DNA of 39,261 bases from positions 1 through 39,261 of IMG/VR virus record IMGVR_UViG_3300022670_000245. The stretch is one strand, 5' to 3'. The notes beneath the pieces are model-generated. The model saw only the letters and a program-made list of their open reading frames with translations, did no database searches and was not told where the DNA came from. This DNA comes from a virus. Positions 7,259 to 39,261 of this stretch are shown piece by piece (within the stretch, counting starts at the first letter, position 1; each line of letters begins with the position of its first letter). A program made the position numbers and the translations under genes.

Positions 7259-7503
7259 TGGTTGGTGTTTTCCTCTCGTCTATATCTAAAATAGGTGAGA
7301 GGTTTTTTTGGTCTCCACCGTGTGTAGACATATGCCTCAACCCCTATAAACGTTACAAAGTTGAAAATGTTAAAATGGAAGATATTGATGAATTTAAAAT
7401 TATACATCCCATAGAGATTGTGGTGTATTCTTTAGAGTGGTGTAATTACAATACAGAAACCAAGAAGTTCAATATTGGCTACATGAAACATTTATTAAAT
7501 TAA
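7258..7503 (+). CDS. Hypothetical protein (81 aa) between terS and terL
   Basis: Track ORF with TAATG overlaps at both ends. Confidence 0.45.
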   Translation: MVGVFLSSISKIGERFFWSPPCVDICLNPYKRYKVENVKMEDIDEFKIIHPIEIVVYSLEWCNYNTETKKFNIGYMKHLLN

Positions 7504-8723
7504 TGATAGAACTATTCAAGCACCAAGATGAATTTCTATATTCCGATGTAAGGCATACGGGAATCGTTGCCGGGTTTGGAAGCGGCAAGAGTTTTGTCGG
7601 CATGCTTAAGGCGGTATCAAAGAAAATGTCGTACCCTGGTATAAACGTTGCTTACTACTTACCGACTTACGGACTTATAGAAGATATTGCATATCCCGGA
7701 ATATCCGACGTTCTTGACGCTCACAATGTCCCATACACTTTAAACAAGTCGTTACACAATTTTATAACCCCCTTTGGAAAGATAATAATGAGGTCGTTAC
7801 AAGACCCGTCCAGGATAATAGGATATGAAGTGGGATATTCGGTAATAGACGAGGCCGACATACTGCCCACAGATAAAATGTGGGACGTATTCAGAAAAGC
7901 ATTGGCAAGAAACAGGAAGAAATTACCAGACGGAAAAGTAAACAGCCTTGACTTTGTATCTACCCCAGAGGGATTTAAATTCTTATATCAGTTCTTTGTC
8001 AAAAAAAGAAGCGATAAGAAACTTCTAATAAACGCCAGAACCGAGGACAACGATACTTTACCCGATGATTACATTGAGGGAATGATGGACAGCTATACAC
8101 CTGAACAGATAGAAGCATATTTAAACGGGCAATTTGTCAACCTCACCACCGGAACCGTATACAGAAACTACGACAGGATATTGAACCACAGCGATAGGGA
8201 GATAAGAAAAGGCGAGGTATTACATATCGGGATGGATTTCAACATTACCAATATGAACGCTGTTGTGCATGTGATAGATAATGCCAAGCCTATTGCGGTG
8301 GAAGAAATAACAAGCGCATATGATACTGCTGAAATGGCTGGACTTATAAAGGATAAGTATCCAGGTCATGGAATAGTAATATATCCAGATGCAAGTGGAA
8401 AGAACAGGAGCACAAGCGGCAAGAGCGACATCCAGATATTGAGGGCCGCAGGATTTACGGTAAAGACATTGAACAAGAACCCATTTGTAAAGGATAGGGT
8501 AAATGCTATGAACTTGGCCCTATTGAACAATAAAGGAGAAAGAAAGTATCTAATCAACGGCAATAACTGTCCGGTCTATACGGAGGCATTGGAACAACAG
8601 GTTTATAAGAATGGAGTGCCCGACAAGAAATCCGGATTCGACCATGTATGTGAGGCAGGGGGATATTTCATCTTCCAAAAGACAAAACAATTTAGGGGCT
8701 ATAACCCTATGAAAGCTAGATGA
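7503..8723 (+). CDS. terL: Terminase large subunit
   Basis: Walker A GFGSGKS, Walker B VIDEAD, and C-terminal nuclease-like HIGMDFN / IVIYPDASG. Confidence 0.9.
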   Translation: MIELFKHQDEFLYSDVRHTGIVAGFGSGKSFVGMLKAVSKKMSYPGINVAYYLPTYGLIEDIAYPGISDVLDAHNVPYTLNKSLHNFITPFGKIIMRSLQDPSRIIGYEVGYSVIDEADILPTDKMWDVFRKALARNRKKLPDGKVNSLDFVSTPEGFKFLYQFFVKKRSDKKLLINARTEDNDTLPDDYIEGMMDSYTPEQIEAYLNGQFVNLTTGTVYRNYDRILNHSDREIRKGEVLHIGMDFNITNMNAVVHVIDNAKPIAVEEITSAYDTAEMAGLIKDKYPGHGIVIYPDASGKNRSTSGKSDIQILRAAGFTVKTLNKNPFVKDRVNAMNLALLNNKGERKYLINGNNCPVYTEALEQQVYKNGVPDKKSGFDHVCEAGGYFIFQKTKQFRGYNPMKAR

Positions 8724-15679: not shown

Positions 15680-16111
15680 ATGAGCAAATCTAATTTACAG
15701 GAAACGGCATATTTGAAATTAATATTTCAAAACGTAGCAATGGCCAACATAGGGGATGCGGCCGGAATTCAGCCTAGTGCCGTGGCCGGAAGTTTATTCA
15801 TAGCTTTGTACAGCGCAGACCCAGGGGAAACGGATGTGGGAACCGAATTGACGTACACGGGATACGCAAGGGTAGCAGTGGCAAGAAGCGTAGTTGGGTT
15901 TACGGTTAGCGGAAACGAGGCTAGTAACGCAGCGCAAGTGTTGTTTCCGTTGAATAGCGGGTCAACGCAAACCGCTAATTTTTTTGCAGTAAGAACAGCG
16001 TCTAGCGGAGGTGATTTAGTGGGGTCGGGAGTGGTGTCTCCGTCCTTGACCGTAGATAACGGGGATACCCCAAAATATGAACCAGGAGATTTAACAGCAA
16101 CAGAGGACTAA
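15680..16111 (+). CDS. Hypothetical virion protein (143 aa)
   Basis: Track ORF. ...LFIALYSADPGETDVGTELTYTGYARVAVA... recalls a widespread phage structural family that I cannot name. Confidence 0.6.
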   Translation: MSKSNLQETAYLKLIFQNVAMANIGDAAGIQPSAVAGSLFIALYSADPGETDVGTELTYTGYARVAVARSVVGFTVSGNEASNAAQVLFPLNSGSTQTANFFAVRTASSGGDLVGSGVVSPSLTVDNGDTPKYEPGDLTATED

Positions 16112-16584
16112 TGAGACTATATTTATTATTGCTTATGTTTTCCATATCATGCCAAGGGCAGGGATATTTTAAAATACCGTTCGTCAACTCAAAGAACAAC
16201 GTACCTATTGTAATGATGAAGGTTAATGATGGTTCGGGTATATTCATTATAGATACGGGGGCCACCTACAGCATAATAAATTCAAACTCTGCCAATAAAT
16301 ATGGTTTTAAGATAAAAGGATTTTATCGACATATTGGAGGGATAGGCGCAGAGAAAGTCTATTTGAGAAATACGGAAAACCTAAAGATATGGATAAGGGG
16401 CATTCCAATAAATGTAAGATTCAGGGCGATGAACCTTGACAAATTACAAGCAAGAGCCGACATAGTAGGGATATTGGGGTCGGATTGGATATTAAAAAAC
16501 AAGGTTATAATAGACTACGAGCGGAAAATCTTGTGGATAAAAATAAAGACCTATAAAAAAGCAAGGTCATGGCAGAAACGATAA
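16111..16584 (+). CDS. Retropepsin-like (clan AA) aspartic protease with N-terminal signal/lipoprotein-like peptide
   Basis: IFIIDTGATYSIIN (DTGA at 16252-16263) plus VGILGSDWILKNKVIIDY match bacterial retropepsin-like proteases. The N-terminus is MRLYLLLLMFSISCQG|QG. Confidence 0.8.
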   Translation: MRLYLLLLMFSISCQGQGYFKIPFVNSKNNVPIVMMKVNDGSGIFIIDTGATYSIINSNSANKYGFKIKGFYRHIGGIGAEKVYLRNTENLKIWIRGIPINVRFRAMNLDKLQARADIVGILGSDWILKNKVIIDYERKILWIKIKTYKKARSWQKR

Positions 16585-22936: not shown

Positions 22937-24226
22937 GTGAAAATAAAACTGCTGGATTTATTCAAGAGAAAGACACCCTTTGACAAAAAGCAAGGGGTAG
23001 TCCTTAACGGGGAATCGAACGATTACGCTGAAAAGGTAGACCGACTTACAGATTTGTCCATTACGTCTAAGATGTCATGTACTATAATGGCTAGTTTTAT
23101 CCACGGAAACGGGGTGGGCGATGAATCAAAGGACATTATAGTTTTTGAGGACGAAAGCATTTCTTTGCAGATGTTCTCCATGATAGCGGCCAAGACAATA
23201 GCAAAGCACAGGGGTATATATATACATGTTGATTGGAACGCAAATTTCGAGATAAGCGGGTTTAAGGTGCTTCCTTACCACACTTGCAGAAAGGGGGAAA
23301 AAGACGACGAAGACTACAACGCAAAGATTCTTGTTACAAAGGAATGGGTTGGGAATGGGCATCATTCAAGGCATAGCCACCATTCAAACCATCATTCAGG
23401 CCATCATTCAAGAGACCACCATATACACCATAAACAAATTAAAGACGACGATATTTCCGTTATAGACGTTTTTAATCCCAATGAAAACGTAATAACGGCC
23501 CAGGTCGAAGCCTCCAAGGGTAAAGACATGGCCGAAAAATGGAAAAGTTATAAAGGTCAAATATGGTATGTTAACCCTGATATTGAGTTTGAATATGCAC
23601 TTGCAAGGATAGACCCAGTAATGAACGATTGCGATAGCGAAGCACAAAGCTCTGTTTATAAGAACCGTTCAACAAGGAAAGGATTCTTCGGCAAGACCAT
23701 GATAATTACCAAGCCTTTGACCGGGACAGTTGAGGATTTTGGAACGGACGTACAGGGAAGATTAGACCATCAAAGGGCAATAACAGAAGAAGAAGAGTTT
23801 ACGGAAACCGCAAGGGGATGGTTGGGCGCAGAAAACACAGGCAATATGCTGCACGTCCAATTAGACCATACCGGGGAGAGTTTTGATGACGTTATAAAAA
23901 TAGTGCAGTTCAAATCAGACATAAACGACAAACTTTTTAAATATACAGAGGAAAGTGTTTTTAGAAATATATTGATGGCCTTTAACAATCTACCGGAAGG
24001 ACTAGTAAGGTCAGAGGGTTCGATGTTCGGGAACAGCGGGGAAATGTTGCGGGTAATGAAGGAAACATACCAGCAAAATGTTTCAATGGAAATCGCCCAA
24101 TTGGAGTTTATCATCAATAGGCTTATGAAACTATTTAAGGAGCCGGTAGAGAATATTGAGCTAATTCCGTTGGTAGAGAAAACCGAAGGAAGCGGACATA
24201 AAGAGGAAGAAGAAGAAAAAAAATAA
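22937..24226 (+). CDS. Portal-like protein with internal His-rich insert (429 aa, GTG start)
   Basis: It is the only unassigned about-430-aa ORF in the head block and has an acidic C-terminus (KEEEEEKK). 22937 is GTG and the first in-frame ATG is 45 codons later. The portal call is positional. Confidence 0.5.
   Translation: MKIKLLDLFKRKTPFDKKQGVVLNGESNDYAEKVDRLTDLSITSKMSCTIMASFIHGNGVGDESKDIIVFEDESISLQMFSMIAAKTIAKHRGIYIHVDWNANFEISGFKVLPYHTCRKGEKDDEDYNAKILVTKEWVGNGHHSRHSHHSNHHSGHHSRDHHIHHKQIKDDDISVIDVFNPNENVITAQVEASKGKDMAEKWKSYKGQIWYVNPDIEFEYALARIDPVMNDCDSEAQSSVYKNRSTRKGFFGKTMIITKPLTGTVEDFGTDVQGRLDHQRAITEEEEFTETARGWLGAENTGNMLHVQLDHTGESFDDVIKIVQFKSDINDKLFKYTEESVFRNILMAFNNLPEGLVRSEGSMFGNSGEMLRVMKETYQQNVSMEIAQLEFIINRLMKLFKEPVENIELIPLVEKTEGSGHKEEEEEKK
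23360..23431 (+). repeat. In-frame His-rich tract built from 12-nt cat-cat-tca-nnn units
   Basis: Encodes HHSRHSHHSNHHSGHHSRDHHIHH (13 His in 24 residues). catcattca recurs four times (once as caccattca). Confidence 0.9.
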
Positions 24227-25702: not shown

Positions 25703-27724
25703 ATGAAAAAGTTTTTATCAATATTGATATTTTTCTTGTGCATTGTTGCGCACGGACAGATAACACCTGTTGTTGACGGGGTAAGATACATTCCATTAAC
25801 AACTGTCCAAATACTCGCCATTGTTTCACCTTCACAGGGCGAGACACAATACAGTAGCGACACAAAGACAAAATTCGAGTTCAACGGCACTATTTGGGTC
25901 GATACAGGAATAGCTGCGGCTGGGGATGTTACCGCAGCGGCAAACCTTGGGGATAATTTCCTCATTAGGGGCGACGGGGCAACCAAAGGCGTTCAAAATT
26001 CCGGCATTTCCATAAGCGATTTGGACGACATTACGGGCGCAAATGAAATAAACATTAAAACACTGCCCATTTTTCAGAGATTCGTGTCTTTATTGACTAC
26101 GGGAGTAGAACAAGGCGGGTTTCTTTCGCCAAATACAGATACCACTAAATTTGATATTTCCGACGGCAATGGCATTGTTATAGACCAATTTACAGACCCA
26201 GATAATCCAACATATACAGAGGTCAGTTGGTCTGGATTGACAGCTATTGTACCAACTTTTATAGCAACACAGGATATTTCACATATTGGCATAAATAGTG
26301 CGGGAACAGTAGTGCAACAAATTGCAGGGTTTACAGAGGAACAACACAGGAGCATTATTGTATTGGGGAGATTGGTGCATGCGGATAATGTAAATGTTTC
26401 CAGTGCTACAGATTTGTCCCATGTAATCAATCTTTATTTATCGGAGGATTTGGTCAGTGCGATTGGTAACATAAATGCCTTTGGGAACAACTTTAATGCT
26501 GCAAGCACAAATTTGACCATTAGAAAAGAGGCCGGGAAATCTTTTAGCCCGAGCGACAACAGAGTTACAAATCCTTTAGACCCAAACAATAAAACATCTG
26601 GAGTCCTTAATCCAGCAACATTTATATATGTGCATAACGATGGCAGTGGGGGAGCTACATCCAATCCGGGAGAAACAAACATAGACCCCGGCTTTTTTGA
26701 TGATGGAAGCGGAACCCTGCAAACAGTCGGGAACAATCAATGGACAAATAAACTTATTTATTTTTTCCCTAGCTCTGGAAATGTAATAGTTAGGTATGGG
26801 GAAGAGCTATTCAACTCTTTAATTTCAGCGGAAAACGCAGTATCAAAAATAACTCCAGCTGATGTAGAAGGTCTTACTAATGAGTTTGTTCGTACTGTTT
26901 TAACGGTAAAGGGCAATGAAACCGATTTATCAAGTGCAAACACAGCGTTTGCCAATACTGGTAAGTTTGGTTTAGACGGGGGCGTTATAGGAGGGGGCGG
27001 AGGTGCCATACAAGACCTACAGGATACTTATAACAATTCCGTAACGCCGGAAATAGTAACAGATGCAACAAGGGGAGCTGTATCTTTTAAAAGAGGAACA
27101 ACTTTGGACACGGATGATGTTTTTGAGGTGTTGAACGGAGCAGATGCACAAGCTTTTGGTGTTAAGGGCAACGGAAACATATTTACACTGGGAACGGTTG
27201 ATGGTGTAGATATAGCGAACGATGCAATTACATCCATAGGCGCAGGGAGAACAAATGTAATAGACATATCCCATATTTACGGACAGTTACAAGCGGATTT
27301 TGATACGGACGGCGCACCTCCTGCCGATGAATTTGTAGTTATTACGGACGCAATAGACGAAATGAAGTTTATTGTTCCATTGGGGGCTGTAGGCGTTGAT
27401 TTAACGGTTGCCACAAGCGTAACCCATATCCCTGTCCTTGACGCAATAACGATAACAAGGATAGAGGTTGATTTATTGGTGGCCGCTACAGGCGCAACGG
27501 CAACATTCGATATTAATTTAGACGACGGTACACCAGCGTCTATTTTAAGTACAAAATTAACCCTTGATACAGGGGAACGATTTTCTAGTACCGCAGCTAC
27601 ACCGCCTGTTATTTCAGACGCAACAATACCAGCGGATTCATTCTTAACATTTGATGTTGATGTGATTGGTTCGACTATAGCCGGGTCTGACGGAACTATA
27701 ACGATTTATTACACAATAGACTAA
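25703..27724 (+). CDS. Large fibre/adhesin-like protein with predicted signal peptide (673 aa)
   Basis: The N-terminus is MKKFLSILIFFLCIVAHG|QITP. It is followed by PLTTVQILAIVSPSQGETQYSSDTKTKFEFNGTIWV (a motif common in Bacteroidota surface and fibre proteins) and GDNFLIRGDGATKGVQNSGISISD. Confidence 0.7.
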   Translation: MKKFLSILIFFLCIVAHGQITPVVDGVRYIPLTTVQILAIVSPSQGETQYSSDTKTKFEFNGTIWVDTGIAAAGDVTAAANLGDNFLIRGDGATKGVQNSGISISDLDDITGANEINIKTLPIFQRFVSLLTTGVEQGGFLSPNTDTTKFDISDGNGIVIDQFTDPDNPTYTEVSWSGLTAIVPTFIATQDISHIGINSAGTVVQQIAGFTEEQHRSIIVLGRLVHADNVNVSSATDLSHVINLYLSEDLVSAIGNINAFGNNFNAASTNLTIRKEAGKSFSPSDNRVTNPLDPNNKTSGVLNPATFIYVHNDGSGGATSNPGETNIDPGFFDDGSGTLQTVGNNQWTNKLIYFFPSSGNVIVRYGEELFNSLISAENAVSKITPADVEGLTNEFVRTVLTVKGNETDLSSANTAFANTGKFGLDGGVIGGGGGAIQDLQDTYNNSVTPEIVTDATRGAVSFKRGTTLDTDDVFEVLNGADAQAFGVKGNGNIFTLGTVDGVDIANDAITSIGAGRTNVIDISHIYGQLQADFDTDGAPPADEFVVITDAIDEMKFIVPLGAVGVDLTVATSVTHIPVLDAITITRIEVDLLVAATGATATFDINLDDGTPASILSTKLTLDTGERFSSTAATPPVISDATIPADSFLTFDVDVIGSTIAGSDGTITIYYTID

Positions 27725-28251
27725 TGAAGTATTTATTCGTTTTATTTTTTGTTTGCCAATTTGCCCAAGGGCAGATAGTAGATAGGTTTATAAGGTTTGT
27801 TGCAAGTCCGCTTTATGATTTTAACAATGCGGCAACACCTGCCCCAAACGAGGTTAACGGGGTAGTCGGGTGGACAGTAGGAGTGCTTACGTCAGTTTCA
27901 TCTACATCCACAGACCCATTTGAAGGGAGTTTTAGGATAGAAATGTTGCACACAGGTGGAACGGATGAATTTTCTAGCCTATTTGCGGAACTAAATTTGG
28001 AGAATGGGGCTACATACCAAATAGATGTACATACCCAAGAGCTTGTGAGCACTAATTTTCAAGTATCATTGCGTACCGATGCAGGGTGGACAGTTGCAGA
28101 TACAAAAAACACGCCTTCGGGTGGATGGCAACTAATAACCGTCACGGCGACTACAAATACAACAACGCCACGGCTAAGATTTAGCACGACCGCTTCTGGC
28201 GACGGGGGTGATAAATTAGGGATTGACAATATAGTTATCACAAAATTATGA
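27724..28251 (+). CDS. Secreted beta-sandwich/CBM-like protein (175 aa)
   Basis: N-terminus MKYLFVLFFVCQFAQG|QIVD. The C-terminus ...RLRFSTTASGDGGDKLGIDNIVITKL is typical of carbohydrate-binding-module endings. TAATG overlap upstream. Confidence 0.65.
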   Translation: MKYLFVLFFVCQFAQGQIVDRFIRFVASPLYDFNNAATPAPNEVNGVVGWTVGVLTSVSSTSTDPFEGSFRIEMLHTGGTDEFSSLFAELNLENGATYQIDVHTQELVSTNFQVSLRTDAGWTVADTKNTPSGGWQLITVTATTNTTTPRLRFSTTASGDGGDKLGIDNIVITKL

Positions 28252-29762
28252 GAAAACTATTTTATATATTAACTATTTGCTTCGCATTGGTAAGTTTTAA
28301 GCCCAGCATGGACTTGGAGAATTATGTAATGGTAAATACCATAGTTTTAACAGACGCTGATATTTTAGCCTTTCCTGGGGCAGTAGGCCATGGAAAAAAT
28401 GCAACAGGCGGCAGGGCCGGCACAACTATTTATGTAACTAATTTAAATAATTCCGGCTCTGGAAGCTTTAGGGAAGCGGTGACTACGGCCGGCGCTAGAA
28501 TAGTTCTATTTAAAACAGGCGGAACAATAACTTTAACAACCGACATAACAATTACAACCGACGATTTAACCATAGCGGGAGAAACTTCGGCCGGTGATGG
28601 TATTGCCATCTACGGAAAAACCGTAAAATTTAGTAACTGTGATAACATTATAGTAAAAAACATAAGGTTTAGGGGCGGCGATACTGCCACTGATGATTCG
28701 GTCAGATTGGTTCAAACAAGTTCGACCGTAGAAATGAATGGATTTATTTTTGACCATTGTTCTATTAGTTGGGGTGCCGATGAAAATTTCGGTTCTGGCG
28801 GTGCTCGTGGGGATGCAGAAATTACAAATGTAACTGTGTCTAATTCAATAATCTCCGAAACATTTAATATTCTAGGGGTATTAATGTTTCATGAAACCAC
28901 GAATTATAGTTATATAAGAAATCTTTTTGCACACAACACAGATAGGAATATTCACGCATCTACAGAAACAAGTTCTTTTGAGTTTATCAACAATTTTGTT
29001 TATGGCTTTAGATTCGGAACACATCCAACTGTTTTGAATGACCATGATATAATCGGAAATGTATATGTTGATGGTCACGATACTTCTACGGAAGTTATAA
29101 AACTTCAAGGATGCATTAATAATTGTGACCCTGACATAACCTCTGGTGCCGGCACTAATTGGTTTGTTGATGATAATACGTTCGATGGCGCAGATGCAGA
29201 TGCGGTCGGGGGCAGGTACAACGACCAGGCAGAAAGCGGAACACCTGTTTTAAGTTCAGGGTATAGCGCATTAGCGAATGCGGTAGTACAAGATAGCGTT
29301 TTAGCGTTTTCAGGAGCCAGAGCAAGGATGGAGGGTGTTGATGCTTTGGACGCACACATGAGGGCAGACGCTTTGAATGGAAGCGCAGGAGGGTATGTTA
29401 CTTTAGAGTCCCAGACTACAGGATTACCAACTTTATCGGCTGGAACGGCTTATACAGATACCGACAACGACGGCCTGAGTGATGCCTATGAAACAGATAA
29501 TGGCGGGAGTGTAACAGCATCAACTAGGCCGTCAACAGCAATTATAAGCAACGGGACAATAATAGACCAATCAGGGGTTACAAGTTTTGCAACACTTGGA
29601 TACACTCATTTGGATATATTTTTAGCTGATCTGGCCAACGATTGGGATGGTTTTGAAGTTACAAGCTCCGGCCCAGTATCGTCTAACATAATACGAGCGC
29701 ACAAAATAAGACTAGGAACAGGTGGCGGGGGAGCATTTTTAGGAACTAATAAAATAAATTGA
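28248..29762 (+). CDS. Pectate-lyase-like (PL1-type right-handed beta-helix) polysaccharide lyase with N-terminal hydrophobic signal/anchor and a Ca-binding TSP3-like repeat
   Basis: AFPGAVGHGKNATGGRAGTTIYVTNLNNSGSGSFREAV...LTIAGETSAGDGIAI...IFDHCSISWGADEN...NLFAHNTDRN matches the PL1 pattern from memory. DTDNDGLSDAYE at 29457-29492. Confidence 0.8.
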   Translation: MRKLFYILTICFALVSFKPSMDLENYVMVNTIVLTDADILAFPGAVGHGKNATGGRAGTTIYVTNLNNSGSGSFREAVTTAGARIVLFKTGGTITLTTDITITTDDLTIAGETSAGDGIAIYGKTVKFSNCDNIIVKNIRFRGGDTATDDSVRLVQTSSTVEMNGFIFDHCSISWGADENFGSGGARGDAEITNVTVSNSIISETFNILGVLMFHETTNYSYIRNLFAHNTDRNIHASTETSSFEFINNFVYGFRFGTHPTVLNDHDIIGNVYVDGHDTSTEVIKLQGCINNCDPDITSGAGTNWFVDDNTFDGADADAVGGRYNDQAESGTPVLSSGYSALANAVVQDSVLAFSGARARMEGVDALDAHMRADALNGSAGGYVTLESQTTGLPTLSAGTAYTDTDNDGLSDAYETDNGGSVTASTRPSTAIISNGTIIDQSGVTSFATLGYTHLDIFLADLANDWDGFEVTSSGPVSSNIIRAHKIRLGTGGGGAFLGTNKIN

Positions 29763-29763
29763 T

Positions 29764-30015
29764 ATGAGTATATTTAAAGATGATTTAGGTGAGTGGAGTA
29801 GTAAAAGAACTGTAGGAATTTCTTATGCGGCTTTAGGTGCTTTAATGGTTATTGGCGGCATGTTTCTATCAGGCTATGAAACGGATATAGACATACTTAT
29901 TGTTGTCATAGGAACGTCGTTAGCGGCATTGGGAATTGCAGCGATACCAAAGAAGCCTAAAATACAAAGCATCACACCGCCACCAGGATCGCCCCCAAAA
30001 GGGAATGACCCGTGA
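29764..30015 (+). CDS. Holin-like protein (83 aa, 2 TM, Pro/Lys-rich C-terminus)
   Basis: TVGISYAALGALMVIGGMFLSGY and IDILIVVIGTSLAALGIAAI, then KKPKIQSITPPPGSPPKGNDP. Confidence 0.6.
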   Translation: MSIFKDDLGEWSSKRTVGISYAALGALMVIGGMFLSGYETDIDILIVVIGTSLAALGIAAIPKKPKIQSITPPPGSPPKGNDP

Positions 30016-30368
30016 TAATTAAAATAAAGAACCTGTGTTTATACCTAACGGCTTTGATGGTCGTTGGGTCTAACATATGTAATTACTTCTTCATTCAAGA
30101 TAGGGATTTACAGTGGAGAGTAGCGATGGTTTCAATTGCAGCGGTCATGTTTTTGATGGCCTTATATGTTTGGCTGAACGAATCATTAAAAAGAAAAGGG
30201 ATTTCGATTATAGTTTCTGGATGGGTCGCCTTATACCTGTCCTTTGATTTGGTGGGAGTTTTGGCCGGTTATAATTTGCATGTTAAAGGATTCATGGTAA
30301 TATTGTTTATAACAACATTTCTAGGGATTTCACATTTATCTATAAGGCTATGGCAGAAATATTATTAA
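30012..30368 (+). CDS. Membrane protein, about 4 TM (118 aa, GTG start)
   Basis: GTGA overlap with the upstream stop. Four hydrophobic stretches. Confidence 0.55.
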   Translation: MIIKIKNLCLYLTALMVVGSNICNYFFIQDRDLQWRVAMVSIAAVMFLMALYVWLNESLKRKGISIIVSGWVALYLSFDLVGVLAGYNLHVKGFMVILFITTFLGISHLSIRLWQKYY

Positions 30369-30658
30369 TGAAAAGTTTAAAGGCGTTATTATCATTCTTT
30401 TGTTATTTCGGCACGGGCATAGTGGCGATGGACGCTTTTGTTTTACAAACACTAGATAATGAAATACTTAATTTCAGCCCATCAACAAGAAAGATAATTT
30501 TTATACTTTTTGTTATTTTGTCAGTGGTCAATATAGTTTGGAAAGTATACGAAAAATTTTATTTAGAGGCCAAAGAAAGAAAGCAAGGCATTGAAAAGAT
30601 GGCTGAAGAAATAAAGAAAATGAAAGAAGGCCATGAAAAAGAGAGCAAAACCCCCTGA
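30368..30658 (+). CDS. Second holin-like membrane protein (96 aa, 2 TM, charged C-terminus)
   Basis: ATG 30368 gives a TAATG overlap (track start 30350 is in the same frame). ALLSFFCYFGTGIVAMDAFVL, IIFILFVILSVVNIVW, then a KE-rich tail. Confidence 0.55.
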   Translation: MKSLKALLSFFCYFGTGIVAMDAFVLQTLDNEILNFSPSTRKIIFILFVILSVVNIVWKVYEKFYLEAKERKQGIEKMAEEIKKMKEGHEKESKTP

Positions 30659-30751: not shown

Positions 30752-30976
30752 ATGTTAAAAACGAATACATTTATAAACAACAATTGGAAATGGATTTTAG
30801 GTCTGTTCGCTTATGTTGTGGTCGGGTATTCAGGATATAAGGGAATGCAGACCGATGTAGAAACGAACACTAGAAGACTGCAAACGTATATTAACGAAAT
30901 AAAAGAGCTTAAAAATGACGTGAACGGCCTTAAAATAGATATTGCTATACTAACAGCTAATCAAGATTGCAAATGA
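30752..30976 (+). CDS. N-terminally anchored coiled-coil protein (74 aa; i-spanin-like architecture)
   Basis: WKWILGLFAYVVVGYSGY followed by heptad-like RRLQTYINEIKELKNDVNGLKIDIAIL. Confidence 0.5.
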   Translation: MLKTNTFINNNWKWILGLFAYVVVGYSGYKGMQTDVETNTRRLQTYINEIKELKNDVNGLKIDIAILTANQDCK

Positions 30977-31404
30977 AAGATGTATATGTTATCCGGGATT
31001 TATTTTTTGATGGAAAGGCCAGTTTAGGGACTTGCTTTGTGTATGATGGCAAAAAACAATTGTTCAAAAGCGATAGTTTAGAAAGGGGATGGGTCAACAA
31101 TGAAAGCAGAATAAGTTGTATTCCTACCGGAAATTACGAACTTGTATTAGAACATAGCAATAAGTTCAAAAAAGACCTTTGGGAAATAAAAGGGGTTCAC
31201 GGAAGAAGCGAATGTAAATTTCATGCTGCCAATTATTGGAAACAATTAAACGGATGTATAGCCCTTGGAAAGAACAGAAAGTATATTGATGGGGATTCAA
31301 TCATGGACGTAACCAGTAGTAGGGACACGATGAAACTGTTTCACAATGCTTTAGACGGGGATAAGTTCGCTAACTTGCATGTGATTGACATTTTAAACTT
31401 ATGA
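30973..31404 (+). CDS. DUF5675-like protein (143 aa); candidate non-canonical cell-wall hydrolase
   Basis: RISCIPTGNY and KFHAANYWKQLNGCIALG match my recollection of DUF5675 (SCIP.G.Y ... H.GN....GCI.lG). ATG 30973 gives an ATGA overlap (track start 30967 is TTG). Confidence 0.6.
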   Translation: MKDVYVIRDLFFDGKASLGTCFVYDGKKQLFKSDSLERGWVNNESRISCIPTGNYELVLEHSNKFKKDLWEIKGVHGRSECKFHAANYWKQLNGCIALGKNRKYIDGDSIMDVTSSRDTMKLFHNALDGDKFANLHVIDILNL

Positions 31405-31599: not shown

Positions 31600-32184
31600 T
31601 TATAATAAAAGAAGAACAAATATAGCGGTTCCAAAAATCCCAATTCCAACACCCTTTACCAAACTTCCATTTCTACATTTCTTGGCGGCATACCTTAGAC
31701 CTTCTTTGTATTCCGTTATTATTTCGGTCTTTATAAGCACGACCCCCTTACAATTTTCAAGCTGTACCTTTTGATTATCTACAACCCTTCTTAGAATTTC
31801 CACTTCTTCTATTGATTGTGCACCATACGATGCGATTAGCGAGCGTTTTGTATTATTATTGTAACTACCGCCATAAATGACTATACCCCTTGTTAGAATC
31901 GTTCTTTCGTTGTTTATTGTGGTTGTTTCGGTTATTGGATTGGCCCGTTCAATCCTTCGTTGGGTGCTGTCTATCTTAATCTGGAAGTTTAGAACTTGGT
32001 TTAGGTTTGCTAGTTGTGCGTTTCTTGCTTCCAATAGAATCACCTGTTCGTTTTTCTTGGCCTCAAAGGATTGCGCCTGTTCAAATCGTTTTTGGACTTT
32101 GTTGTTTGAATTTAACGTGCAGATAAAATATCCGAGCACTATTCCGAATATTCCTAACAATATGTGTGTTGTGTATTTGTTCAT
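31600..32184 (-). CDS. Membrane protein with TM helices at both termini and a central coiled-coil/beta region (194 aa)
   Basis: N-terminal HILLGIFGIVLGYFICTL, C-terminal GVGIGIFGTAIFVLLLL, central QAQSFEAKKNEQVILLEARNAQLANLNQVL. Confidence 0.65.
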   Translation of the reverse strand: MNKYTTHILLGIFGIVLGYFICTLNSNNKVQKRFEQAQSFEAKKNEQVILLEARNAQLANLNQVLNFQIKIDSTQRRIERANPITETTTINNERTILTRGIVIYGGSYNNNTKRSLIASYGAQSIEEVEILRRVVDNQKVQLENCKGVVLIKTEIITEYKEGLRYAAKKCRNGSLVKGVGIGIFGTAIFVLLLL

Positions 32185-32209: not shown

Positions 32210-32389
32210 CTATATGTTTTTGATTCTGCCCAAAAAAAACCAAGCAACCCAATAAATGCACGTCCCTGCTAAAAATTCAAATATAAGAATTGTAATTTCC
32301 TTCTCATCACCATAGGCCATCTTAGAAAGAGATTGCAGAAAAAGACATATTGGTAATGCCACCGCAAATGATAATATACTTCTTTTCAT
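32210..32389 (-). CDS. Possible small 2-TM membrane protein (59 aa)
   Basis: Hand translation: MKRSILSFAVALPICLFLQSLSKMAYGDEKEITILIFEFLAGTCIYWVAWFFLGRIKNI. Confidence 0.4.
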   Translation of the reverse strand: MKRSILSFAVALPICLFLQSLSKMAYGDEKEITILIFEFLAGTCIYWVAWFFLGRIKNI

Positions 32390-39062: not shown

Positions 39063-39261
39063 ATGAAACCATTTACCGAAATACTAGAAACAATATCATC
39101 CATAGTTGAAACATACGACGGAGGCGCATATAGAGGGCTAAGTGAAATGCACAGGACTTTGACATGTAACATGCACTATCTATCCAGAGAGCAAGTAAAC
39201 TACCATACAAAATGGAACCAAGAATATTATAACTCTACAGAACCGTCAAACGCAGCAAAGG
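39063..39261 (+). CDS. 5' part of the junction-spanning ORF (continues at 145 of the left end; same gene as 1-251)
   Basis: ATG 39063, open to the window end. MKPFTEILETISSIVETYDGGAYRGLSEMHRTL... Confidence 0.6.
   Translation, partial: MKPFTEILETISSIVETYDGGAYRGLSEMHRTLTCNMHYLSREQVNYHTKWNQEYYNSTEPSNAAK
39118..39261. repeat. Right copy of the 144-bp exact direct repeat (identical to 1-144)
   Basis: Same comparison as above. The repeat lies inside an ORF, which fits an assembly overlap of a circular or permuted genome. Confidence 0.97.

Follow-up and report, generated by a model that had tools for sequence, protein, structure and literature searches.

The IMG/VR virus record IMGVR_UViG_3300022670_000245 is a contig of 39,261 nucleotides (nt). 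The whole of it, called the window here, was analysed around three adjacent genes at positions 25,703 to 29,762, whose products are termed P1, P2 and P3. P1 is a mosaic tail-fibre-type protein, P2 a predicted carbohydrate-binding module (CBM) and P3 a predicted lyase of polysaccharide lyase family 1 (PL1), and all three begin with what appears to be a signal for Sec export. Equivalents of P1 and P2 that carry such signals are annotated as virion proteins in cultured Cellulophaga phages, which points to fibre-type proteins of a tailed phage that may be made as exported precursors and yet probably reach the particle. The features of the three genes are listed below. A slash marks a predicted cleavage site, aa stands for amino acids, and pLDDT is the predicted local distance difference test of AlphaFold2 (AF2) models.

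25703-27724, plus strand: P1, 673 aa, mosaic tail-fibre or receptor-binding-type protein with a predicted signal peptide (PHROG tail fibre, 1.3e-8)
25703-25756, plus strand: predicted P1 signal peptide, residues 1-18, MKKFLSILIFFLCIVAHG, then Gln19
25757-25954, plus strand: P1 N-module following the signal peptide, residues 19-84, ...IPLTTVQILAIVSPSQGETQY...FEFNGTIW...
26036-26947, plus strand: central beta-rich body of P1, residues ~112-415 (AF2 pLDDT 80-95 at residues ~130-425)
27401-27706, plus strand: distal domain of P1, residues ~567-668
27724-28251, plus strand: P2, 175 aa, predicted signal peptide and CBM4/9-like beta-sandwich (residues ~45-175)
27724-27771, plus strand: predicted P2 signal peptide, residues 1-16, MKYLFVLFFVCQFAQG/Q
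28248-29762, plus strand: P3, 504 aa, PL1-family lyase by prediction, with an N-terminal signal or anchor and a phage-type C-terminal extension
28248-28298, plus strand: hydrophobic N-terminal segment of P3, residues 1-17, MRKLFYILTICFALVSF
28335-29207, plus strand: right-handed parallel beta-helix core of P3, residues ~30-320 (AF2 pLDDT mostly >90)
29457-29492, plus strand: TSP3-type Ca-binding loop of P3, DTDNDGLSDAYE, residues 404-415 (Pfam TSP3_bac, E=0.012)
29670-29759, plus strand: disordered C-terminal tail of P3, residues 475-504, ending ...KIRLGTGGGGAFLGTNKIN (pLDDT<50)

The open reading frames (ORFs) and their junctions read exactly as the original prediction had given them, including the overlaps that it took as translational coupling: TAATG between P1 and P2 (stop 27722-24, start 27724-26) and ATGA between P2 and P3 (28248-51). 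The next gene begins at 29764, 1 nt past the P3 stop. The base composition of P1-P3 is that of the neighbouring structural genes, and the three form the distal end of a late operon for virion and lysis proteins. Scans for sigma-70 promoters and terminators across P1-P3, which do not cover Bacteroidota promoters, returned chance-level signals only, and no DNA match turned up when the region was compared by megablast with 50,697 phage records.

Signal peptides were called from hydrophobicity and pattern criteria plus comparative evidence rather than by a trained predictor. An N terminus with Lys or Arg followed by a hydrophobic run occurs in 6 of about 74 candidate ORFs of the window, and three of the six are the adjacent P1, P2 and P3. 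P1 starts with MKK and the hydrophobic FLSILIFFLCIV, the strongest N-terminal hydrophobic segment in the window, and P2 with MK and YLFVLFFVCQF. Their predicted cleavage sites, A-H-G/Q19 and A-Q-G/Q17, fit both the small-x-small pattern of signal peptidase I (SPI) and the Q-rule, in which a Gln exposed by host SPI is the substrate of glutaminyl cyclase and which is documented for Bacteroidota (PMC5837995, PMC10653852). The original prediction had assigned Sec/SPI signals and the Q-rule to P1 and P2 on these sites, and had correctly claimed no such Gln for P3.

P3 starts with MRK and the hydrophobic LFYILTICFALVSF, with neither a canonical SPI site nor a Gln. In an alignment of the P3 family (A2), the homologues read ...A/QTITLTDADIKAFP, and P3 instead has a 12-aa insertion, KPSMDLENYVMV, followed by Asn. 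The N terminus of P3 could thus remain uncleaved, as an anchor, or be processed at a site of non-canonical type. Within the insertion, after the hydrophobic segment, lie two in-frame ATG codons, for Met21 (nt 28308) and Met28 (nt 28329); a start at Met28 would yield MVNTIVLTDADIL..., which is nearly exactly the mature end of the P3 homologues. A P3 isoform lacking the signal and started at an internal Met is thus possible. P1 and P2 have no internal Met able to give such an isoform.

Relatives of the three proteins carry the same kind of N terminus. Among the 120 best P3 homologues it is nearly universal, and 54 of the 84 P2-family sequences have it. A Gln directly after the predicted cleavage site, Gln(+1), is found in 50 of these 54 and, among the 20 closest P3 relatives, in 17 of the 19 with a signal peptide; the background frequency of Gln is 2.8%. 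About 20 P2 orthologues without a signal start at the predicted mature end (MIINSYIF against ...FARG/QFVINSYAYA). Structure prediction, which the original prediction had proposed as a check, leaves the N-terminal helices of P1 and P3 detached from the folded bodies in AF2 monomer models: the P1 model has an isolated low-confidence helix at residues 2-16 and then a disordered stretch, and in the P3 model a helix at residues 3-14 is split from the body by a linker (residues 16-27, pLDDT<50).

These observations bear on one alternative, that the N termini are not used for export at all. The proteins would then assemble in the cytoplasm, the established default route for tailed phages, with the helix either retained, buried in a trimer or the baseplate, or cut off by a phage protease. 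The window encodes a ClpP-like prohead protease and a retropepsin-like protease, and the apparent signal peptides of capsid proteins may be removed by a prohead protease (Matrishin et al., PMC10367356). However, a buried structural helix should keep its sequence, and these N termini do not: across homologues of 25-60% identity, they vary in sequence while keeping their character. Cytoplasmic assembly would also leave unexplained why Gln(+1) occurs in ~90% of the homologues with signal peptides and is absent from a Vibrio-like phage, and why orthologues without a signal start at the cleavage point; the detached helices in the predicted models also argue against it. We regard this alternative as distinctly improbable and the signals of P1 and P2, judged from these patterns, as very probably functional.

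Where export would lead is suggested by what the proteins lack. No match at E<=0.1 was found in P1-P3 to the C-terminal domain of the type IX secretion system (T9SS; PF18962 Por_Secre_tail, TIGR04183, TIGR04131) in Pfam and NCBIfam, and the lipoprotein models matched none of the three. Nor is there a lipobox: the N-terminal Cys is preceded by L in P1 (FLC13), V in P2 (FVC11) and I in P3 (TIC11), and it lies in the middle of the hydrophobic region. Among bacterial PL1 homologues, by contrast, some have PF18962 or a signal of lipoprotein type. With neither a T9SS domain nor a lipobox, export of P1-P3 would end at the periplasm until lysis. The sole Cys of P1 is the one in the signal peptide, and mature P1 and P2 are Cys-free.

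P1 was called fibre-like in the original prediction, and the assignment holds: it has PHROG, tblastn and BFVD matches to fibres, and the gene stands at the end of the structural module. Module by module, matches were sought by piecewise tblastn. Residues 1-65 match Cellulophaga phage ‘structural proteins’; the body (residues 112-415) matches tail fibres of Stenotrophomonas, Flavobacterium and Streptomyces phages; and the distal domain is 42-49% identical to a tail fibre of S-CRM01 (Synechococcus) and to virion proteins of Rhodobacteraceae and Sphingomonas phages. By blastp, the N-module matches gp101 of Cellulophaga phage phi19:1 (33% over 93 aa, E=5e-11). Seventeen examples of this module (alignment A4) share the consensus TTA..A..P..G...N.TT....G..W. 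One of the 17 matches DUF2793 of Pfam, weakly (E ~0.1), and the module also occurs in a protein without a signal peptide (P0027).

Most P1 homologues start MA... or MS... and have no hydrophobic N terminus. Homologues of the body in tail modules (P0023, P0008 and P0035) have BppL_N or DUF2793 N termini in place of the signal peptide. Fold searches gave many matches to fibre-like proteins of Caudovirales in BFVD (1e-37 to 1e-10). In the PDB, there were weak fibre and jelly-roll matches, among them lambda gpJ at 6.6e-5 with poor superposition, and the matches of the distal domain are jelly-roll-type and weak. The fold of P1 is therefore assigned no more finely than ‘phage fibre-like’. By their relatives, the body and distal domain are ordinary, horizontally exchanged tail-fibre modules.

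The evidence for P2 lies at the family level. An exhaustive HMMER search found 83 relatives (84 sequences with P2), where a word-indexed search gave one, and tblastn against cultured phages gave no match. P2 alone reaches 1.6e-4 with the Pfam family CBM_4_9 (22.5 bits, under the gathering cut-off of 25.9) and 8e-4 with the NCBIfam GTA head-spike-fibre domain. A profile of 48 P2 relatives (A3) matches CBM4-2 structures (3jxs, 2y64 and 1k42, ~1e-5) and the laminarinase CBM4 1gui (9e-4), and CBM_4_9 (PF02018) is matched by 13 of the 48 family members, best at 2.7e-9. These profile and family matches bear out the CBM-like call first made for P2, which is predicted to be a CBM4/9-like glycan-binding module.

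P3 matches the PHROG pectate lyase family (4e-43) and, in PDB sequence searches, PfPL1 (9buj, 3e-20, or 7e-51 with the family profile), VexL (2e-20) and Jun a 1 (9e-7). NCBIfam PelZ matches at 1e-32, far under its equivalog cut-off, and the Pfam PL1 model PF00544 gave no match at E<=0.1, so that P3 belongs to a divergent PL1 subfamily. The AF2 model has an overall pLDDT of 87.8 and a predicted template modelling score (pTM) of 0.86, and the top 28 PDB matches found with Foldseek are all PL1. They are led by 9buj (1.3e-15, TM-score 0.60/0.69) and VexL (6.4e-12), and Jun a 1, Thermotoga PelA, BsPel, PelC/PelA and pectin lyases A and B are further matches. In the phage clade, D169, D178 and R233 are invariant and H170 nearly so, in the motifs FDHCS, GADEN and DRN. 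We take these to resemble the WxDH and RxPxxR motifs of PL1, with the second Arg presumably replaced by His in P3. The PL1 signature that had been claimed from the sequence is thus recovered with PHROG, PDB sequences and Foldseek, and P3 is a PL1 polysaccharide lyase by sequence and predicted fold, with lyase activity as a prediction. The Ca-binding repeat, likewise part of the original prediction, also stands, as its acidic residues are conserved in the family: D404 and D408 are invariant in the P3 alignment, and D406, D412 and E415 nearly so.

The C terminus separates phage-type from bacterial homologues. The bacterial ones end at DGDGYTNLEEFL, whereas in phage-type ones a linker follows and then a short tail, basic and hydrophobic, of a kind specific to their clade. 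In the phage-type PL1s (P0043-P0100), the TSP3 loop is followed by a conserved ‘GYTHLDIFLADLA.DWD’ block, a linker rich in P, G, S and T that sometimes holds a Cys-rich CSDGIQNGDETGVDCGGSC module, and a tail of one of several flavours (...KIRLGTG..FLGTNKIN, ...FFYLGSTKY.., ...KKKK..IIWW or ...KKR.TKIGL). P2 orthologues without a signal begin with K.YLGS..I repeats, like the PL1 tails. The motif [YF][LI]G[ST] is enriched only ~3-fold in these places (12 of 58 PL1 C termini and 6 of 30 N termini of signal-less P2 orthologues). From this likeness, the PL1 tails and the P2 repeats may be docking tags.

A further explanation is that the three are recently captured host genes, a secreted set for pectin utilization (moron or auxiliary metabolic genes), acting on algal pectin instead of in infection and carrying their signals as baggage. 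PL1 enzymes with signal peptides are widespread in cells, Bacteroidota included, and the PHROG class of the lyase family is ‘moron, auxiliary metabolic gene and host takeover’. But the closest relatives of P3 (47-70% identity) are on phage-sized contigs and cellular genomes reach only 28-40%; a narrower PL1 alignment searched against genomes found the general cellular PL1 pool alone, again at 28-40% identity. A C-terminal extension of its own marks the phage clade, which is devoid of the sorting signals, for T9SS or lipoproteins, that the cellular enzymes carry. Moreover, the base composition is that of structural genes, the genes are translationally coupled in a late operon, P1 is a phage fibre and the cassette is conserved across many phages. 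Recent capture is very hard to reconcile with all this, and we consider it the least probable of the explanations discussed here.

The evidence that such proteins reach the virion comes from cultured Cellulophaga phages, whose GenBank records carry the note ‘annotation based on experimental MS/MS proteomics analysis’ (MS/MS, tandem mass spectrometry; MS, mass spectrometry). Holmfeldt et al. 2013 is reportedly the source of these annotations. The loci concerned are phi10:1 gp091-095, phi19:1 gp101-104, phiSM gp08-09 and phi13:2 gp084-087, from phages of the Assiduviridae and the Pachyviridae and from one unclassified phage. They have the same order as the window: one or more fibres with signal peptides, a protein with a signal peptide and a P2-like CBM domain, a lyase or beta-helix protein with a signal peptide, and small membrane proteins. 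Gln(+1) is present in almost every one of those with a signal peptide; phi19:1 gp104 lacks it. They have the N-module in common with P1, and the PL1 protein gp095 is 31% identical to P3. The phage backbone of the window is unrelated, with no DNA similarity and different head and tail genes, P2 is free-standing here and the C terminus of longer proteins there, and P3 has lost the canonical cleavage site. The signal peptides of these tail-end proteins are mentioned neither in their records nor in the literature found.

In phi10:1, gp091-094 are each ‘structural protein’ by MS/MS and each have a signal peptide and Gln(+1); gp091 has the P1-type N-module and gp094 a P2-like C terminus. The PL1 protein gp095, also with signal peptide and Gln, is annotated by similarity only and is absent from the MS set. 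In phi19:1, gp101 is structural by MS/MS, begins MKKIFSILILLSCFYINA/QGVAPLVDQVRFIVKTTTQMNAL... and matches P1 residues 1-84 (E=5e-11). Its neighbours gp102, gp103 and gp104 are also structural by MS/MS; the C terminus of gp103 matches P2 (E=1.5e-4), and gp104 is a beta-helix protein at the lyase position with a GDGVADDT motif and a signal peptide without Gln(+1). In phiSM, gp08 (signal peptide, Gln and N-module) was detected by MS and gp09, a 1094-aa lyase containing PL1, was not. Over the whole phi10:1 genome, the MS set comprises portal, minor capsid, major capsid, connector and tail proteins plus the four proteins with signal peptides, and no early, terminase, protease, lysis or small signal-peptide- or lipoprotein-like protein. 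Four proteins have both a signal peptide and MS detection, 5 a signal peptide only, 8 MS detection only and 79 neither (Fisher p = 0.013). On this evidence, MS detection is not a general property of exported phage proteins.

These data weigh on the explanation that the original prediction had put first, that P1-P3 are exported, non-virion effectors. Freed at lysis, they would strip capsule or extracellular polysaccharide (EPS) from the dying cell and its debris, or mask receptors there, so that progeny are not trapped, and the real receptor-binding proteins would lie elsewhere, e.g. the gp80-like fibre or the large tail proteins at 10.8-19 kb. In its favour, the signals are genuine and fit the host, and Matrishin et al. 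(PMC10367356) view Q-rule phage proteins as altering the envelope of the host. Among the structural matches of P3, VexL, second in rank, is described as a periplasmic capsule depolymerase, another fibre-type gene, without a signal peptide, lies in the window, and the PL1 lyases are missing from the virion MS sets of phi10:1 and phiSM. On the other hand, fibre and CBM equivalents with signal peptides have virion annotations by MS/MS in three cultured phages, as part of a set that is clean in other respects. Exported phage proteins of other kinds went undetected in the phi10:1 set, the body and tip modules that make up P1 are standard for tail fibres, and phi19:1 gp104, the beta-helix protein with a signal peptide at the lyase position, was itself detected. 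For the three proteins together, effectors of this kind are thus an unlikely explanation. The effector proposal is not supported for P1 and P2, whose equivalents are annotated as virion proteins, and stays viable for P3, given that gp095 and gp09 were not detected by MS and that a gene for PL1 with a signal peptide occurs in a small prophage-like element. The second option of the original prediction, virion proteins that take an unusual topological route, is favoured for P1 and P2 by their MS/MS-annotated equivalents. By analogy with these, P1 and P2 are probably virion-associated; for P3, a mainly non-virion role is about evenly poised against the alternative.

In at least eight backbones, the cassette occupies the place of the fibre genes and is followed at once by genes for membrane and lysis proteins. 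These backbones are the window, L003, L009/10, L002, L021, phi10:1/phi19:1, phi13:2 and phiSM, L numbers denoting the other loci compared. Since the arrangement recurs in independent phage loci, it is not a matter of chance. The loci other than those of the Cellulophaga phages are as follows.

L003, a syntenic 40.5-kb TARA contig with an integrase: an 835-aa protein (...FANA/Q), a 179-aa protein (...IANG/Q) and a PL1 protein (...LTVA/Q)
L009/L010: a 566-aa protein, a 187-aa protein and a PL1 protein, all with signal peptide and Gln, then two transmembrane proteins and an M15-like peptidase
L021, 57% GC: an 862-aa protein, a 249-aa protein and a PL1 protein, all with signal peptide and Gln
L002, with a Mu-like head module: a 763-aa protein with signal peptide, Gln and a P2-like C terminus, then a PL1 protein with signal peptide and Gln
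L026 1030-11470, a small prophage-like element of Flagellimonas onchidii (SRXX01000002.1): a 410-aa protein and a PL1 protein, both with signal peptide and Gln
L012 1694-4963 (IMG/VR UViG_3300019760_000013): three consecutive proteins with signal peptides, of 129 aa, 394 aa and 569 aa, the last a PL1 protein

The Flagellimonas element, which holds the closest ‘chromosomal’ PL1 homologue, also encodes a Phage_CRI-type replication initiator, an M15 peptidase, a GTA_holin_3TM protein and a 250-aa protein without a signal peptide that has a motif like the fibre N-module. In L012, the large terminase subunit is 61% identical to those of Vibrio phages (1.021.A) and the signals are not followed by Gln (...AVALS/LDAFPG). 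The lyase cassette with signal peptides is thus not confined to Bacteroidota phages, and Gln(+1) appears to track the host phylum, being kept in Bacteroidota-type phages and absent in the Vibrio-like L012. The pattern in L019 (55% GC) is similar to that in L012. As further observations, L003 (10139-12322 and 13113-13586) has a fourth large protein with signal peptide and Gln (727 aa), past two transmembrane proteins, and, past an M15-like peptidase, a 157-aa lipoprotein-type protein (...VLVIGC/KAK) that is a candidate o-spanin.

All-against-all comparison of 12 loci found only two protein groups common across backbones, the P2-like/PL1 proteins and the fibres with signal peptide and N-module. 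The cassette may be a mobile set of fibre, CBM and PL1 directed at host-surface glycans. Its movement across unrelated backbones, a small prophage-like element included, with no conserved docking partner is one more point in favour of exported effectors.

The window has an exact 144-bp direct repeat at both ends (1-144 = 39118-39261) and is therefore a complete phage genome of ~39.1 kb, circularly assembled or terminally redundant. The host is a marine member of the Bacteroidota, probably of the Flavobacteriaceae. The genes named in what follows are these.

7503-8723: large terminase
15680-16111, plus strand: 143-aa fibre-type protein without a signal peptide (Pfam PF23140 ‘Podophage GP4 fiber I protein gp80’, 7e-20)
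16111-16584, plus strand: 157-aa protein with a signal-peptide-like N terminus, MRLYLLLLMFSISCQGQ, and a retropepsin-like aspartyl protease domain (IIDTGAT)
22937-24226: portal
29764-30015, plus strand: 83-aa protein with 2 predicted transmembrane segments and a Pro/Lys-rich C terminus, putative holin-like candidate
30012-30368, plus strand: 118-aa protein with 4 predicted transmembrane segments
30350-30658, plus strand: 102-aa protein with 2-3 predicted transmembrane segments and a charged C terminus, putative holin-like candidate
30967-31404, plus strand: DUF5675 protein, 145 aa, candidate lysis enzyme (Pfam DUF5675, 4.8e-22; phrog_1501)

Relatives of the portal are detectable only in phages of Bacteroides, Phocaeicola, Elizabethkingia and Cellulophaga. 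The portal also contains a His-rich low-complexity tract, GHHSRHSHHSNHHSGHHSRDHHIHH, at residues 141-165 (nt 23357-23431). Tail proteins, a ClpP-type prohead protease, a capsid protein and a DUF6712 protein are encoded as well, and from the GP4 gp80-like protein the tail is possibly podovirus-like. In the 157-aa protein, Pfam Asp_protease_2, RVP_2 and RVP all exceed their gathering thresholds. The gene lies inside the structural module, directly before that of an 823-aa protein, and a predicted exported retropepsin is unusual for a phage. It was considered as a conserved partner of the cassette and rejected, as it was not found in the other (partial) loci compared.

Downstream of P3, the three transmembrane proteins had no significant match in Pfam, PHROG or NCBIfam and none to a holin family, the Pfam matches of the 102-aa protein all being sub-threshold. 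P3 does lie directly upstream of small membrane proteins, as originally described; the holin label given to them is plausible only. A 74-aa protein is encoded in the same region as these and the DUF5675 protein. The DUF5675 gene sits where related loci carry an M15-type endolysin, and a PDB sequence search with its product found no relative. The product has an H-x9-GC motif that we presume to be reminiscent of YkuD-type enzymes. The genes downstream of P3 are plausibly a lysis cassette. Two minus-strand genes without a family match follow just past the lysis region: one at 31600-32184 for a 194-aa protein, which has a hydrophobic segment at either end and is coiled-coil-like in between, and one at 32210-32389 for a 59-aa signal-peptide-like protein.

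The account that we favour combines these elements: P1-P3 would be Sec-exported, processed late proteins, with P1 and P2 joining the virions at lysis. We put it forward tentatively, at a little under an even chance. P1-P3 would be made as precursors with Sec-type signals, and host SPI would cut P1 past AHG and P2 past AQG. The Gln so exposed would be cyclized to pyroglutamate by the host glutaminyl cyclase, and the proteins, having no onward sorting signal, would be held in the periplasm. Once the inner membrane is opened by the holin-like proteins encoded next to P3, this pool would come into contact with the particles assembled in the cytoplasm, and the brief mixing of cytoplasm and periplasm inside a still intact envelope would provide a confined space for fibre attachment. 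P1 and P2 would turn virion-associated at this opening. P3 would stay membrane-tethered or free, digesting capsule and EPS around the lysing cell, or would attach loosely. Export could benefit Ca-dependent folding (of the TSP3 loop, the catalytic Ca site of PL1 and the Ca sites of the CBM) and could provide a protease-resistant pyroglutamate N terminus (PMC10653852). What we infer are the export itself, cleavage, the forming of pyroglutamate, the stay in the periplasm, and when and where the proteins attach; what is observed are the genes, the signal features and how they behave across homologues, the three folds or families, the spread of the cassette and the virion annotations in cultured phages. 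As an extension, which we offer with more reserve, many tailed phages of Bacteroidota and some of Proteobacteria might send their fibres, CBMs and depolymerases through the host Sec pathway to mature in the periplasm, and might add them to the particles only between rupture by the holin and disintegration of the cell, which would be an undescribed, extracytoplasmic final stage of assembly.

Several points weigh against assembly at lysis. We know of no precedent among tailed phages for fibres that join the tails once the membrane is disrupted. The MS/MS evidence comes second-hand from GenBank notes and is silent on whether the virion forms lack the signal peptide; co-purification of the proteins with virions is possible; and the data come from related phages, the present one being known from sequence alone. 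No docking partner without a signal peptide travels with the cassette among the 12 loci, which is odd for a fibre attached to the virion. Flavobacterium phage 11b, which has a homologue of the P1 body, and phiST, with a 1248-aa SGNH/PL protein, use versions without a signal peptide. The window itself encodes a gp80-like fibre protein without a signal peptide as well as large tail proteins, so that P1 is not needed as the only receptor-binding protein. Finally, oxidative folding was tried as a reason for exporting P1 and P2 and rejected: the mature forms contain no cysteine and thus provide no such motive.

Use of the Sec pathway by late phage proteins is familiar from endolysins with signal peptides or signal-anchor-release (SAR) sequences, from lipoprotein spanins and from inovirus virion proteins with cleavable signals. 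Those are lysis effectors or serve assembly at the membrane, whereas the proteins here are of fibre type and belong to a tailed phage assembled in the cytoplasm. Classical tailspikes have an N-terminal particle-binding domain and no signal peptide, and are usually PL3, PL6 or GH28-like. P3 differs from them in being a single-domain PL1 protein with a signal, and its PL1-containing equivalents are unseen in the virions of two phages. What P3 shares with virion depolymerases and tailspikes is a beta-helix lyase encoded beside fibre genes and before lysis genes, with a presumed role on capsule or EPS in adsorption or release (PMC8776804). The pectin lyases of flavophages have been discussed, with no mention of signals, as tail-located or release enzymes (PMC8776804). 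VexL (PDB 6fi2) and PfPL1 (PDB 9buj) share the PL1 fold and sequence kinship with P3, and VexL, a periplasmic capsule depolymerase by its PDB title, is a precedent for a PL1 protein acting on capsule in the periplasm; both are cellular and lack the phage-type C-terminal block and tail of P3.

Q-rule signal peptides on phage genes have one published parallel, in Porphyromonas gingivalis prophages, where five genes of unknown function have them and were taken to modify the outer membrane of the host (Matrishin et al. 2023, PMC10367356). There too, predicted SPI cleavage exposes a Gln, taken as phage adaptation to the host Sec system; that work differs in making no tie to fibres, lyases or virion proteomics. 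Tail or target proteins of phages are generally expected to have no signal peptide, and the absence of one has been used to argue for phage origin (PMC6199706). In the library of papers searched, none was found tying signal peptides to fibres, CBMs or depolymerases detected in tailed-phage virions. Fibre, CBM, PL1 depolymerase and Sec signal are each known; what is new is that they are combined, that the combination is conserved and that it is apparently present in virions, and this poses a puzzle of topology.

Fibres and depolymerases are determinants of host range and have been assumed to fold and assemble in the cytoplasm. The question of whether some pass through the periplasm can be tested in existing Cellulophaga phage-host systems, partly from existing MS data. 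If these proteins do not pass through the periplasm, the strong conservation of Gln(+1) needs another explanation. If they do, this would be a new assembly route with consequences for phage engineering, as fibres and depolymerases made recombinantly might have to be expressed in the periplasm and bear a pyroglutamate N terminus. It would also matter for annotation pipelines that drop proteins with signal peptides as non-structural, and would bear on how marine flavophages handle capsule and EPS.

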